This document shows positions 188 through 46,429 of a stretch of 61,092 bases of DNA, piece after piece (the first letter of the stretch is position 1; every line of letters begins with the position of its first letter). The notes beneath the pieces are model-generated. The model ran no database searches and was not told where the DNA came from. It saw only the letters and a list, made by a program, of their open reading frames with translations. Source of the DNA: Gemmatimonadota bacterium. GTDB taxonomy: Bacteria > Gemmatimonadota > Gemmatimonadetes > Gemmatimonadales > GWC2-71-9. Where the stretch lies: contig JBDHFY010000001.1 in the NCBI GenBank assembly GCA_039590195.1, forward strand, positions 1-61,092. The letters run 5' to 3'. The translations under genes and the position numbers were made by a program.

Positions 188-274
188 CGGAGAGGGTGGG
201 ATTCGAACCCACGAGACCCCAAGGGGCCTACCGGTTTTCGAGACCGGCTCCTTCAACCACTCGGACACCTCTCC
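188..274 (-). tRNA. tRNA-Ser (anticodon CGA), CCA end not encoded
   Basis: Reverse complement GGAGAGGTGTCCGAGTGGTTGAAGGAGCCGGTCTCGAAAACCGGTAGGCCCCTTGGGGTCTCGTGGGTTCGAATCCCACCCTCTCCG: 7-bp acceptor stem, CCGGT/ACCGG anticodon stem with CT-CGA-AA loop, long variable arm, GTTCGAATC T-loop, discriminator G. Confidence 0.97.
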
Positions 275-15952: not shown

Positions 15953-18285
15953 CACTCTTCCTCGCAATGATGCTGACCCTGCAACAGCCAGAGGTGGTCG
16001 CCACTGTCGATCGGAGTGAAGTGGAGCTGGGTGATGACGTCGTGTTGATCGTCAGGACAGATGCCCCCGGCAGCGCACCGACGGAAATCGAAGAGCCCGA
16101 GTTGATCGGGTTTGAGGTCCGAGATGTGAATCTCGCCTCGACCTTCAGTGCGACTGGGGGAGCCGGAACGAGGATTGTCACCTGGGAGTACCGGCTGCGG
16201 GCTACCTCCCGCGGGCAGGGGCGCATCGGCCCGATTCGTGTCAGAGTGGGGGAGGTGGAGGTGGAGGCGCCGATGATCACAGTGGATGTGAGAGCCGCAG
16301 ATGCCCGCGCGGGGGCGGCATTCACACCTCGCGTTAGGCAGATCGTTGCTCGCGCGCCAGGACCGGATGGGTCTGATGAAGTCATTGTTGCGGTTGTGCC
16401 CTCGGCGGACACGATTGTCCTCGGGGCACAGCTCGACCTGGTCGTCGTGGCTTGGTTTCCGCGGGATGTGCGGGCGAGATTGCGAACCAGACCTACGCTT
16501 ACACCGCCGGAGCTCCAGGGGGCTTGGACGTACTCTCAGTCGTCCGCTTTAGATGCAGTGTCGAGCCGCGAAGTGTGGGGCCGTCTCTATGACCTCTTTG
16601 TGCACCGCCAAGTGGTCTTTCCTCTTACCGCGGGCCCATTGGAGGTGGGGCCGGCGACCGTCTCGTTTAGCCTTCCCCTCCGCACGTCGATACTCAGTCG
16701 CGAGATACCCCAGGAGGTTCAGAGCGAAAGCCGGTGGGTCGAGGTCGTGCCTCAACCCGAGGCAGGTCGCCCGGAAGGCTTCACCGGAGTTGCCGCCAGC
16801 GGGTTGAGTTTCGAGGTGTTGGTGGACAGCCAAGCGTTGGCGCTGGGGGGAGGCGTCACGATCAGGTCCACGGTGCAGGGTCATGGCAATATCGCACTCT
16901 GGCCGGAACCCCAGTTCCGGTGGCCGCGGGGCGTTCGGGTGTATCCAGGCGGAACTGATCTCCAGCTCGCTCCGGAAAACGATCTGATCGCGGGCACCAA
17001 GACGTTTACGTACTTGGTTGTTCCCGACTCGGCGGGCACCTTTGCAATCAGAAACCCAGTGTTTCCCTACTTCGATCTGGACACGCGGCGTTACCGGGAG
17101 GCGCGAGCGGGTTCGGTCGAGTTCGTCGCCAGGGCAGGTCGCCCATCGGTGGCGTTGCGGGTACCTCCTCCGCTCTTGATGGACGCGGGTGGTGAGCCGG
17201 TGCTCCGAGGCTTGATGTCTCGTATTCCGCTATGGGGCTGGTTGCTGCTCGTGGCATCGCCCGCAGGATTGGCCCTGATCGGTCGCCTGGTGAGCCGCTC
17301 ATCCGTGCGGCGAACTGAGCGAGCGGCCCCGACTCCCGCCAGCACGCTCGAGAGACTCGACCGACAATTTCGAGGTGCCCTCGAACGCCTGGTGCCCGAC
17401 GCGACTGTGCGCGAGGGGCATGCGCTGGCTGAGGCCTTGCGGGCGGCCGGTGTAGAAACGCCGGTGGCGGCGCATGCATCTCGGCTACGAGACCGGCTCG
17501 GCCAGGCGGTGTACGGCCCCGATGGGGCCAGCGATCCCGAGGAGCTGGGCGCCGAAGTACAGGAAGTGTTGAATGCGCTGCCCGGTGCGCGAGTCCTCGA
17601 CCGGCCGGTGCGCGGTGTTGCTGCTGCCGTCGCCGTCGTCTTGGTGCTGGGCGCGGCTAGCGCGTCGGCGCAGGAGCCAACCGCCGAGCAACTCTTTGAC
17701 GCTAGGCTATTCGGTGCGGCTGCGGACAGCTTCGCGTTGCGCGGCGCTGTGCAGCCGGGTGAGGCGGCGCATTGGTTCAATCTGGGGAGTGCCCTCTTTG
17801 CCCTCGGTGAGGAAGACCGGGCCCGCCTTGCTTGGGTGCGCGCCGCGCGAATTTTACCCCGGCGGAGCGAAATCCGAGATGCCCTGAGCCTGATCGGACC
17901 ACCGGACGCCAACTCGAGCGGCCTGTTGTGGATCGCGCCGGTCACTGCGTGGGAGGCCGGCGCGGTGGCCGTCGTTGCGTGGGTGATAGCGTGGCTGCTC
18001 ATGGCTCTGGGCGCGCGCTACACTCGTGTGGTCTTGCTGCTGACCCTGAGCACGGCGACCGTCGCCTATGCCGCGTACGTGAGCCGGCGATACCGGACGC
18101 CGGTTGCGGTGGCAATCGCACCTGAAACACCACTGCGCTCGGCTCCGTACGGTGGCGCGACCGCCGCAGTGTTCCTGGACGAAGGTATGGCTGTGCGCGT
18201 CAACGACACAGCAGGGGTTTGGTTGTTGGTCACTCGCGGAATGTCGCAGGGTTGGGTGCTTGGGGAGGAGGTCGAGAGACTGTAG
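15949..18285 (+). CDS. batD: BatD family protein fused to a BatE-like TPR/SH3 region
   Basis: Repeated Ig-like BatD segments, PYFDLDTRRY, HWFNLGSA TPR, C-terminal SH3b-like W...GWV. Confidence 0.78.
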   Translation: MTLFLAMMLTLQQPEVVATVDRSEVELGDDVVLIVRTDAPGSAPTEIEEPELIGFEVRDVNLASTFSATGGAGTRIVTWEYRLRATSRGQGRIGPIRVRVGEVEVEAPMITVDVRAADARAGAAFTPRVRQIVARAPGPDGSDEVIVAVVPSADTIVLGAQLDLVVVAWFPRDVRARLRTRPTLTPPELQGAWTYSQSSALDAVSSREVWGRLYDLFVHRQVVFPLTAGPLEVGPATVSFSLPLRTSILSREIPQEVQSESRWVEVVPQPEAGRPEGFTGVAASGLSFEVLVDSQALALGGGVTIRSTVQGHGNIALWPEPQFRWPRGVRVYPGGTDLQLAPENDLIAGTKTFTYLVVPDSAGTFAIRNPVFPYFDLDTRRYREARAGSVEFVARAGRPSVALRVPPPLLMDAGGEPVLRGLMSRIPLWGWLLLVASPAGLALIGRLVSRSSVRRTERAAPTPASTLERLDRQFRGALERLVPDATVREGHALAEALRAAGVETPVAAHASRLRDRLGQAVYGPDGASDPEELGAEVQEVLNALPGARVLDRPVRGVAAAVAVVLVLGAASASAQEPTAEQLFDARLFGAAADSFALRGAVQPGEAAHWFNLGSALFALGEEDRARLAWVRAARILPRRSEIRDALSLIGPPDANSSGLLWIAPVTAWEAGAVAVVAWVIAWLLMALGARYTRVVLLLTLSTATVAYAAYVSRRYRTPVAVAIAPETPLRSAPYGGATAAVFLDEGMAVRVNDTAGVWLLVTRGMSQGWVLGEEVERL

Positions 18286-44742: not shown

Positions 44743-44771
44743 CGTTGGACGTTCGCGTTGAGACGTATTCG

Positions 44772-45146
44772 ATGGAGATTTCCTTCAGTAATCGTGAGCT
44801 CGATGTCATGGCCGTTCTGTGGAGCCGCGGTTCCGCCACGGTTGCAGAGGTCCGCGATCAGCTCCGGGATGACCTGGCGTACACGACGGTGCTCACCGTG
44901 CTCCAGACATTGGAGCGGAAGGGCCACGTGAGGCACGAGGAGCAGGGCAAGGCGTACCGATACTTCAGCCTGGTCGGCCGAGATGTGGCCGCCCGGTGTG
45001 CCCTCACGGAAATTGTGGCAAAGCTGTTCGGAGGATCGTCCGAACTCCTGCTCATGCAGCTAGTGGCAGACCGGCACCTCTCGGACGAAGCGCTGATCCG
45101 CGCGCAAGAGTTGCTCGACGACCGCCTGCAGGCATCCCGGGAATGA
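44772..45146 (+). CDS. BlaI/MecI/CopY family transcriptional repressor
   Basis: RELDVMAVLW, ATVAEV, LAYTTVLTVLQTLERKGHV, GKAYRY, LFGGS. Confidence 0.94.
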   Translation: MEISFSNRELDVMAVLWSRGSATVAEVRDQLRDDLAYTTVLTVLQTLERKGHVRHEEQGKAYRYFSLVGRDVAARCALTEIVAKLFGGSSELLLMQLVADRHLSDEALIRAQELLDDRLQASRE

Positions 45147-45232
45147 TGGGTGTGGCGCTGGTGTAACGGGCGGGCGTCCCTCTTGGAAGGTGATGACGAA
45201 GCAGGGGCACCGCGAGAACTTCCCGCCGAATA

Positions 45233-45342
45233 GAAAAAGAGAACCTCGGTCGGTTGGGCGACCTGCCGTATGGCTAGGTCCTCGCTGGAGGGGACGAAGC
45301 GGGTCCACGCACTGCCCGGCTCAACCGACCGAAGTCCTCTAG
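45233..45342 (-). ncRNA. Candidate structured small RNA, family not recognised
   Basis: 22-bp closing stem (45319-45340 with 45238-45259), three internal hairpins, 3' U-run, upstream promoter. Confidence 0.6.
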
Positions 45343-45348
45343 GACCAC

Positions 45349-45377
45349 ATAATAAGGCCTTTTTCCGCTGATGGCGA
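45349..45377 (-). promoter_or_regulatory. Sigma70-type promoter for the candidate sRNA
   Basis: Minus strand TCGCCA (45377-45372) - 17 nt - TATTAT (45354-45349). Confidence 0.55.
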
Positions 45378-45664
45378 GGCCTGGAGCCGGGCGGGCGGGC
45401 CGCCGGGCGGGATGTCTTCCTTCTGCTTCCCACTTTACGGTTCCGGCCCGGGCCAGTGCGCCGCGCCGCGTCCTCCGGAAACGGACCATAGCGGGGGTAC
45501 CGGGTCGGGTTGTTTCCCCTCAATTTGTTCAGATTAGGTCCGGGCGACACGTCTGCCCCGTCGATGAGGTTAGCTCGCTCGAGCCAACCCGTTTCACGGG
45601 GCCCTCGAGCCAGGTGGATTGCTTATTGTGGGGCAGTCTGCCCATGCGCGGGAAAGGAACAGCG

Positions 45665-46429
45665 ATGAGATCCACGGTTTGTTGTGCTGTTGTGGCAGGT
45701 CTGCTGGTGGTTTCCCAGCTCGCGGATGCCCAGACCAAGACGCGGATCAACGTACGTGTCGTGTCGCACGATGCCAAGATCATTGGGAGCGGCGTCGGGG
45801 GGGCTCGGGTCATCGTCCGGGATCCCGCAACCGGCAGGATACTGGCCGAGGAGCTGCAAGAGGGCGGCACGGGAGATACCCAGGCCATCGTCGTCACTCC
45901 GGTGACGCGGGGGAAGAGCATCTATGCGACGCCGGGCGCGGCGGCGGTAACCGTTGCCCTCGACCTCGATCGGCCCAAGGTGCTCGAGTTCATCGGTGAG
46001 GGCCCTTTGGGATACGGGCACGCCGTTCAACGTGCTGTCAAACGTATGCTCATTCTCCCCGGAGAGGACATCCTGGGGGATGGTGTGGTGCTCGAGCTTC
46101 ACGGATTCATTGTGGAGTTGCTCGAGCCGGCGGCCCCTCCCGCGGCGGGCAGCGGCCCCGTGGAGGTGCTTGCCAGGGTGCGGATGATGTGCGGATGTCC
46201 CCACACCCCGGGCGGGTTGTGGGATGCGGATCGGGTGCAGGTCATGGCTCGCCTGTACCGGGAAGGTGAGGTGCTGCTGAGCCGGCGGCTGCGCTACGCC
46301 GGAGAGCCCAATCTGTTTCGTGGGTCGATATCGCTGGCGGGCGTTCCCGGCGGGAGCCGGCTCGTGGTGGTGGCCAGCGATCCGGACCGCGTGAACTTCG
46401 GGATGAGCACCTCGCATCCTATTCAATAA
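45665..46429 (+). CDS. Secreted hypothetical protein with MMCGCP motif
   Basis: AAAGGA RBS, signal peptide ending ADA-Q, VRVVSHDAKIIG, RMMCGCPHTPGGLW. Confidence 0.78.
   Translation: MRSTVCCAVVAGLLVVSQLADAQTKTRINVRVVSHDAKIIGSGVGGARVIVRDPATGRILAEELQEGGTGDTQAIVVTPVTRGKSIYATPGAAAVTVALDLDRPKVLEFIGEGPLGYGHAVQRAVKRMLILPGEDILGDGVVLELHGFIVELLEPAAPPAAGSGPVEVLARVRMMCGCPHTPGGLWDADRVQVMARLYREGEVLLSRRLRYAGEPNLFRGSISLAGVPGGSRLVVVASDPDRVNFGMSTSHPIQ

Follow-up and report, generated by a model that had tools for sequence, protein, structure and literature searches.

Several described systems offer points of comparison for the locus treated here. Qrr1-5 of Vibrio are sigma54-dependent, multi-copy small RNAs (sRNAs), and MicA, RybB and MicL are envelope-stress sRNAs that depend on sigmaE, a sigma factor of the extracytoplasmic function (ECF) type. 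RsaE/RoxS, CcsR1-4, 6C and alpha-r14/NfeR1 are sRNAs with C-rich, anti-Shine-Dalgarno loops, while sRNA sponges or anti-sRNAs are known from RosA/RoxS, SroC/GcvB, AsxR and AgvB; tracrRNA has an anti-repeat that is the CRISPR repeat copied in inverted orientation. The Gemmatimonadota are among the most abundant soil phyla and their RNA regulators are almost uncharted; in our literature search, no publication on an sRNA from these bacteria came up. GlmY/GlmZ of Enterobacteriaceae (PMC3045617) are a further comparison system. Here we describe an intergenic element at positions 45233-45341 of a 61,092-nt stretch of DNA (hereafter the window; contig JBDHFY010000001.1) from a Gemmatimonadota bacterium (GCA_039590195.1). 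The element is a member of a new family of predicted small RNAs, limited in the genomes searched to one Gemmatimonadota family of the Genome Taxonomy Database (GTDB).

A first-pass annotation, made from the letters alone, had described the element as a four-way-junction sRNA read from the minus strand. As an interpretation this stood in so far as the element is conserved, lies outside Rfam and is probably read from that strand. What the annotation overlooked is that the family is mostly read, as its signals suggest, from the opposite strand, and this family context is the main added interest of the locus.

Conservation, fold and distribution of the RNA family

A check of the sequence found the promoter, the outer stem, the three hairpins and the U-tail all where the first-pass annotation had placed them (Table 1). 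The predicted RNA folds with a minimum free energy (MFE) of -58.8 kcal/mol, compared with -38.2 +/- 3.7 kcal/mol for shuffled sequences (z = -5.56; none of 200 shuffles as good). The single-sequence MFE structure draws hairpins 1 and 2 otherwise; the three-hairpin arrangement is backed by the consensus fold of seven homologues and by pair counts over 77.

A BLAST search retrieved a second core, 76% identical, in the same genome, together with orthologues in relatives. Seven copies aligned to the three-hairpin structure, 12 of its 34 pairs showing compensatory changes, and from these seven we built a covariance model (R1), whose matches were counted at E <= 0.01. Within the same GTDB family R1 gave 88 matches in 35 of 151 genomes and 19 of 78 genera, at one to five per genome; its match to the window spans 45236-45340 (109.1 bits). 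When 77 copies were aligned, 88.5% of cells were paired and 33 of the 34 pairs were altered on both sides, a level that none of 500 shuffles reached and that no slid register of the alignment approached. The fold that had been proposed from one sequence thereby gained covariation support. Hairpins 1 and 2 have loops that hardly vary across the family, and that of hairpin 2 holds a near-invariant 8-mer. The hairpin-3 loop reads NGGC in other copies and is variable in the small subgroup to which the window copy belongs.

The distribution of the family is narrow. In an even sample of the phylum, searched with stricter filters, R1 matches were confined to the same GTDB family (11 of 71 genomes), with none in 79 genomes from 11 other Gemmatimonadota families. 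A pattern scan over the genomes of 185,579 species found at least 120 stretches; among the 80 pattern matches listed, 15 fit the whole model (52-80 bits), and the records of all 15 are titled Gemmatimonadota, Gemmatimonadales, Gemmatimonadaceae or Gemmatimonadetes. The remaining listed matches, mainly from Solirubrobacterales and within a conserved block that looks coding, were taken as chance. As an observation in its own right, the 23-nt core pattern occurs once per genome in many metagenome-assembled genomes (MAGs) of Solirubrobacterales, within a long, conserved and apparently coding block that was left untranslated, and such chance matches are a caution for pattern-only searches of this RNA.

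Four copies are listed for the genome of the window. One of them lies on a 2278-nt contig (C523) that shares 99.7% identity with a contig (G118:C204) in the genome of a different genus. This contig may be mis-binned or recently transferred, and, if it is mis-binned, the organism may hold three copies.

Known RNA classes do not account for the element. Rfam 15, run over the whole window at the gathering score, matched only a tRNA-Ser (CGA; 188-274, minus strand) and nothing at the element, and in 44900-45700 there were no matches at E <= 10. At E <= 1, the 12 pattern-scan loci that we scanned (three with the RNA, nine chance) gave only a 19.3-bit match to whalefall-1, at a chance locus in an actinobacterial (Thermoleophilaceae) MAG. 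These scans and the conserved fold of the homologues agree with the earlier claim of a structured RNA of unrecognised family. That tRNA-Ser is also the only match of ARAGORN in the window. With neither ARAGORN nor Rfam reporting a tRNA or transfer-messenger RNA (tmRNA) at the element, the first-pass statement that it is not a tRNA was likewise borne out.

The annotation had kept a tRNA-like RNA as an alternative, and the cloverleaf-like four-way junction, closed by a long stem from both ends, would suit a tRNA-like or Y-RNA-like molecule acting together with a protein, for instance Ro. Against this stand the negative ARAGORN result, an Rfam search that, with the threshold relaxed to E <= 10, still matched none of tRNA, Y RNA and YrlA, the absence of a T-loop sequence, and the failure to find a TROVE/Ro gene in this 94% complete genome. 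We rejected bacterial Y RNA/YrlA on these grounds, and find an RNA of this general kind barely credible.

Genomic loci and strand signals of the paralogues

Pfam scans placed the copies at orthologous sites across genera. One such site, between a recQ-like helicase gene and nfeD, is occupied in 18 genomes; others lie after argH, where the element faces an HNH-endonuclease gene, after a penicillin-binding-protein (PBP) gene, and between hlyD and a MacB-type ABC ATPase gene. The window copy and that of its congener lie between a blaI-like repressor gene and an open reading frame (ORF) without a Pfam match. At six argH loci there is an extra GC-rich hairpin between the argH stop codon and the element, which could act as a bidirectional terminator of both argH and the opposite-strand RNA.

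We call the CCCCUCC strand, which is the minus strand of the window, the given strand. Promoter motifs that read into the element were found on the opposite strand in 41 of the 88 copies (23 ECF-type and 18 sigma54-type), and on the given strand neither motif was found in any copy (0/88 and 0/88). The ECF-type motif, GAAAC-N15-19-CGTA, lies 7-21 nt from the element, apart from one copy at 54 nt, and a slightly looser pattern raises its count to 26. The sigma54-type motif, TGGCAC-N5-TTYC, lies 7-20 nt away and always belongs to the recQ-nfeD copy. Because its -12 element is TTCC in 14 copies, TTTC in four and the canonical TTGC in none of the 18, we refer to these motifs as sigma54-type and not as proven sigma54 promoters. 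A half-palindrome, TGTCC-N8-GRRCA, is found 90-129 nt farther upstream in 16 of the 18, in the region that is the usual seat of enhancer-binding proteins, and rpoN is present in this genome. A sigma54 promoter as a general feature of the family was rejected, given that the motif is tied to one orthologous locus and 18 of 88 copies.

The stricter form of the ECF-type motif, TGAAAC-N16/17-CGTA, which we take to be an ECF-type sigma consensus, occurs at 24 sites in this genome, 0-243 nt upstream of ORFs (for example on contigs C3, C19, C41, C56 and C257). Among the 21 downstream ORFs scanned were eight PadR regulators, four MacB/FtsX-type permeases and one outer-membrane efflux protein, so the motif behaves like a real promoter. 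It marks a candidate ECF-type efflux and envelope regulon that would include the opposite-strand RNA copies. Other ORFs behind the motif encode an M48 peptidase and a TetR regulator, and the site within the window, at 18123 on the plus strand, precedes mutL and may be chance.

Imperfect pairs gave a second view of the strands, since each A·C combination on the given strand corresponds to G·U when the opposite strand is read. Over all copies, the given strand has 172 A·C and 74 G·U combinations, although these and the following counts come from related, non-independent sequences. The excess is clear in the ECF-type group (A·C 66 vs G·U 18), where the opposite strand folds better in 22 of 25 copies by a mean of 8.8 kcal/mol, and in the group without a recognised motif (83 vs 27), where it does so in 33 of 37 by a mean of 7.4 kcal/mol. 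The sigma54-type group is symmetric (17 vs 16), with fewer non-Watson-Crick pairs. This pattern suggests that it is the opposite strand on which most of the family functions, and the majority of paralogues, the other copies in this genome among them, seem to expose the loops GGAGGGGA and CCACGCA.

The recQ-nfeD copies may be a special case. A- and U-tracts flank the element on both sides in 10 of these 18 copies (14 of all 88 copies), and by eye about 10 of the 18 carry TTGCSG-N17-(C/T)AnnnT on the given strand. The symmetric wobble counts of this group point the same way. It may be that convergent promoters and tracts on both sides produce both forms of the RNA from this single gene. However, none of the weak given-strand words reaches the strict level of nine matches in 12, so two-strand transcription of the locus stays speculative.

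In two contexts the opposite-strand form stands between a motif and a co-directional gene (sigma54-type motif, element, nfeD; ECF-type motif, element, ABC ATPase). This arrangement would fit a cis-acting leader, riboswitch- or attenuator-like, which in the window would belong to the plus-strand gene that starts near 45650. At the argH and PBP loci, however, the element is convergent with its neighbour and has no gene downstream, and where downstream genes exist they are mutually unrelated. nfeD has a conserved CTAACTT-type block of its own near the gene start, and no element lies upstream of nfeD in the genus of the window copy; the nfeD upstream regions inspected were those of three genomes, G000 (which holds the window), G001 and G002. 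In the window, the next start is about 300 nt away from the element, and we saw no pairing that could form an alternative antiterminator. We therefore regard a leader function as highly improbable.

The same loci bear on whether the element works as RNA at all. It could be a bidirectional terminator or insulator, or a repeat acting at the DNA level, such as a recombination site or the MITE/REP-like repeat that the first-pass annotation had named as its own alternative. The copy number (three or four in this genome), the copies with tracts on both sides and the symmetry of the sigma54-type group would all suit such a role, but 50 of the 88 copies have a U-tract on neither side, and the three-fold asymmetry of A·C and G·U in the other two groups would be unexpected under DNA-level selection. 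Moreover, conservation sits in the centre rather than at the ends, with the near-invariant loop 8-mer, and the outer arms diverge and covary among paralogues where a mobile repeat would have conserved termini. Together with the orthologous loci, these features indicate that the copies are not mobile repeats, and a role purely at the DNA level appears very unlikely. The multi-copy part of the MITE/REP-like alternative was correct; we rejected the class itself because a genome holds three to four copies, of which the second-best core is 76% identical, at orthologous loci and with covarying arms (target-site duplications were left unexamined).

An integron attC site was also considered. attC sites have conserved R''/R' core sites at their outer ends and a variable centre, and they adjoin an integrase gene or a cassette array; here conservation is reversed, with an invariant centre and variable ends. 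GTTRRRY/RYYYAAC-like words occur in the window copy and are unconserved in the family. We rejected attC on this basis; no integrase search was made.

Strand of the window copy and its window-type relatives

The window-type subgroup comprises six sequences from four lineages: the window copy and that of its congener, two more from a second genus, and two relatives found in metagenomes. All six carry a CTCGCSA/CTCGCC-N17/18-TAT(T/C)(A/T)T block on the given strand while the other flanking sequence differs, and the -10 position of the five relatives reads TATTTT or TATCTT. In all six, and on the given strand only, the stem is followed by a U-tract or a terminator hairpin. The promoter and U-tail that had been claimed on the minus strand of the window copy thus recur throughout the subgroup, and neither an ECF-type nor a sigma54-type motif was found on the opposite strand of these copies. 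In the window copy the spacer between TCGCCA and TATTAT is 17 nt and nine of 12 hexamer positions match; a promoter scan of the surrounding 850 nt (44900-45750) found this as the sole sigma70-like site, where 0.1 were expected in shuffles. After the stem, six of seven positions are T on the minus strand, compared with three of seven on the plus strand.

Wobble pairs in the subgroup point in the same direction. In four aligned window-type copies there are 13 G·U and six A·C combinations on the given strand, with four of these A·C falling at a single conserved position, and the outer stems of the two metagenome relatives have four G·U and no A·C (hand count). The 22 positions of the outer stem in the window copy include one A·C mismatch and two G·U pairs on the minus strand. 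A U·G pair in hairpin 2 is common to all six sequences and would turn into a C·A mismatch if the other strand were read, and the given strand folds better in four of the six. The minus strand chosen in the first-pass annotation is probably correct for the window copy, and we infer that in the window-type subgroup the transcription signals and the wobble pattern have shifted to the CCCCUCC strand.

Several observations weigh against this assignment. The two strands of the window copy tie in fold energy (-52.2 vs -52.3 kcal/mol), so energy picks neither, and in the congener's orthologue the other strand is better by 3.3 kcal/mol. The strict sigma70 level is reached by the window copy only, the relatives having about seven of 12 matches (hand count). 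The subgroup is small, with its six sequences, and the non-independence of the wobble counts applies here too. A terminator scan found no intrinsic terminator at the window element, and its stem encloses a 60-nt multiloop, unlike a textbook intrinsic terminator. Both flanking genes lie on the plus strand, so that transcription running on past the blaI-like gene could yield an RNA of the other strand. Finally, a degenerate sigma54-type remnant points into the element from the plus-strand side (Table 1), and in a FastTree tree, whose support values were left unread, the subgroup sits beside a sigma54-type copy.

The remnant and the tree position suggest that the subgroup may have arisen from the sigma54-type class through loss of the promoter on the opposite strand. 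No sigma54-type copy is present in any of the four genomes that hold a window-type copy, and no element precedes nfeD in them. The remnant itself, with its -24 element and spacing both off and with no counterpart in the orthologue of the congener, is probably non-functional.

These points raise the possibility that the window copy acts on the plus strand like the rest of the family, with a GGAGGGGA loop, through read-through from the blaI-like gene or an unrecognised promoter. The promoter-like motif and U-tract of the minus strand would then be fortuitous, or would do no more than terminate transcription that arrives from nearby. Motifs, wobble counts and fold energies across the family favour the plus strand, as do the equal folding of the window copy and the orientation of its neighbours. 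This explanation, however, has to accommodate a -35/-10 block kept in four lineages despite different flanks, a plus strand that lacks both a U-tract after the stem and a correctly spaced ECF-type or sigma54-type motif, and the excess of G·U over A·C on the minus strand, including the hairpin-2 U·G pair of all six sequences. In addition, the hairpin-3 loop, NGGC elsewhere, varies freely in the subgroup. We consider plus-strand action of the window copy doubtful, although it deserves to be kept in view.

Features of the window copy and its surroundings

The coordinates of the element and its signals are collected in Table 1. The element is 92% identical to its orthologue in a genome of the same genus (G001), while the flanking DNA is 68-78% identical. 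It is intergenic. The blaI-like gene on one side (44745-45146, plus strand) encodes a BlaI/MecI-type repressor (Pfam Penicillinase_R, 93.6 bits), and no recognisable BlaR1-type sensor adjoins it. The plus-strand ORF on the other side (45371-46429) has a probable true start near 45650 and a signal-peptide-like N-terminus.

Table 1. Predicted features of the window copy (positions in the window; sequences 5' to 3' on the strand given)
Feature	Position	Strand	Evidence or remark
Predicted small RNA (C-form), four-way junction, ~105-109 nt	45233..45341	minus	Fold z; R1 covariance model match
-35-like hexamer TCGCCA	45372..45377	minus	Promoter scan; CTCGCSA block also in the five other window-type sequences
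-10-like hexamer TATTAT, 8 nt ahead of outer stem	45349..45354	minus	Promoter scan
Outer stem, 5' arm, AGAGGACUUCGGUCGGUUGAGC	45319..45340	minus	Sequence; all 18 modelled outer-stem pairs vary on both sides (77 homologues)
Outer stem, 3' arm, GCCCAACCGACCGAGGUUCUCU	45238..45259	minus	Sequence, fold, pair counts
Hairpin 1, CGGG / CAGUGCGUGGA / CCCG, conserved loop core UGCGUGG	45300..45318	minus	Helix 2: 93.5% of cells paired
Hairpin 2, CUUCG / UCCCCUCCAG / CGAGG, loop 45285-45294 near-invariant family-wide	45280..45299	minus	Helix 3: 96.8% of cells paired
Hairpin 3, ACCU-A-GCC / AUAC / GGC-AGGU	45261..45279	minus	Helix 5: 88.3% of cells paired
U-tail UUUUU, abuts outer stem	45233..45237	minus	Sequence; plus strand without matching U-tract
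Degenerate sigma54-type remnant GGGCAC, 8 nt, TTCC, pointing into element	45204..45224	plus	-24 element and spacing off compared with TGGCAC-N5-TTCC

Discussion

On the observed structure, conservation, family membership and distribution, and on the asymmetry of promoter motifs and wobble pairs, we base a model in which transcription, RNA ends, partners and effect are predictions from sequence. The explanation towards which we lean is that the window copy constitutes an sRNA gene of its own, read from the minus strand, whose RNA uses its conserved loops to pair with RNAs that contain GGAGGGG, be these mRNA ribosome-binding sites or opposite-strand paralogues. A promoter-like site, a stem with a U-tail, an intergenic position and covariation are the generic features of such a gene, and the window copy has all four. 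The sigma70-type promoter would initiate the RNA a few bases ahead of the 22-position end-to-end stem, and this stem together with the U-tail would terminate it. Two near-invariant loops, UGCGUGG and UCCCCUCC, would be displayed on short hairpins, from which base pairing with GGAGGGG-bearing RNAs would start.

Two sets of partners are conceivable. Pairing with the Shine-Dalgarno regions of mRNAs would lead to translational repression, and pairing with opposite-strand paralogues would make the window RNA an anti-sRNA that titrates them; we consider an mRNA and an sRNA about equally probable as the physiological partner. GGAGGGG occurs in strong ribosome-binding sites, for example ahead of nfeD in this genus. 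A point that counts against the model is that every GGAGG ribosome-binding site fits the loop, so complementarity alone identifies no target. The same GGAGGGG is invariant in the hairpin-2 loop of the opposite-strand paralogues, whose CCACGCA complements UGCGUGG, and reading the family from the opposite strand alters which loop partner is likely to be the most specific. Copies of the opposite-strand type are also present in all four genomes that have a window-type copy. Predicted duplexes of the window RNA with the three paralogues listed for this genome reach -125 to -134 kcal/mol, compared with -68 to -75 kcal/mol for shuffles, strong values that are expected of inverted paralogues. The window copy may thus be a natural antisense partner of its sister copies.

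Searches of this genome, which is 94% complete, found neither Hfq nor CsrA, a result that fits chaperone-independent pairing of kissing loops and speaks against the G-rich form serving as a CsrA sponge. An Hfq-dependent mode of action was rejected for this reason. A sponge of the CsrB/RsmZ type was rejected as well, there being one G-rich loop per RNA, on the opposite strand only, in addition to the missing CsrA match.

A more far-reaching proposal, which we put forward tentatively and think less probable than its negation, is that one fold is used from both strands. The G-forms, with loops GGAGGGGA and CCACGCA, would be stress-induced from ECF-type or sigma54-type promoters, and inverted C-forms that keep the same four-way junction would neutralise them through two kissing loops formed by UCCCCUCC and UGCGUGG. 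If the paralogues are indeed read from opposite strands, they would offer a rare example from nature of selection acting on both strands for a single conserved fold. The anti-sRNA would have been born of an inverted copy of its target's gene, and the circuit would have evolved by switching the transcribed strand. Apart from this proposal, a multi-copy family of structured RNAs with alternative-sigma motifs offers an entry into the stress regulation (envelope and efflux, sigma54) of the Gemmatimonadota.

The family resembles Qrr1-5 and GlmY/GlmZ in that a genome holds several paralogous sRNA genes of about 100 nt, and in that the recQ-nfeD paralogues combine TGGCAC-N5-TTYC with an upstream half-palindrome (16/18) in the presence of rpoN. 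It differs from them in having no sequence or Rfam relation, a four-way junction in place of a row of hairpins, a -12 element of CC or TC in 18/18, no Hfq found and a window copy without the motif. The likeness to MicA, RybB and MicL lies in the GAAAC-N15-19-CGTA motif, which reads into 23-26 of 88 paralogues and also stands ahead of genes of the envelope and efflux type. In contrast to these sRNAs, the family is unrelated in sequence and fold, and the window copy has a sigma70-like promoter.

With the C-rich-loop sRNAs the family shares its multiple copies and a hairpin loop, UCCCCUCC, that complements GGAGG(GG). Unlike them, it has no Rfam match and one C-rich loop per RNA, and the C-rich reading is limited to a minority subgroup. 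As with the sponges, sequence and strand signals suggest that the most specific complement of the window RNA is another small RNA. The sponges described so far are mostly fragments of mRNAs or tRNA spacers, or else unrelated sRNAs, and not whole inverted paralogues of the same fold. In this respect tracrRNA may be the closer parallel, as the complementarity of the window RNA would likewise arise from an inverted copy of its partner's own gene.

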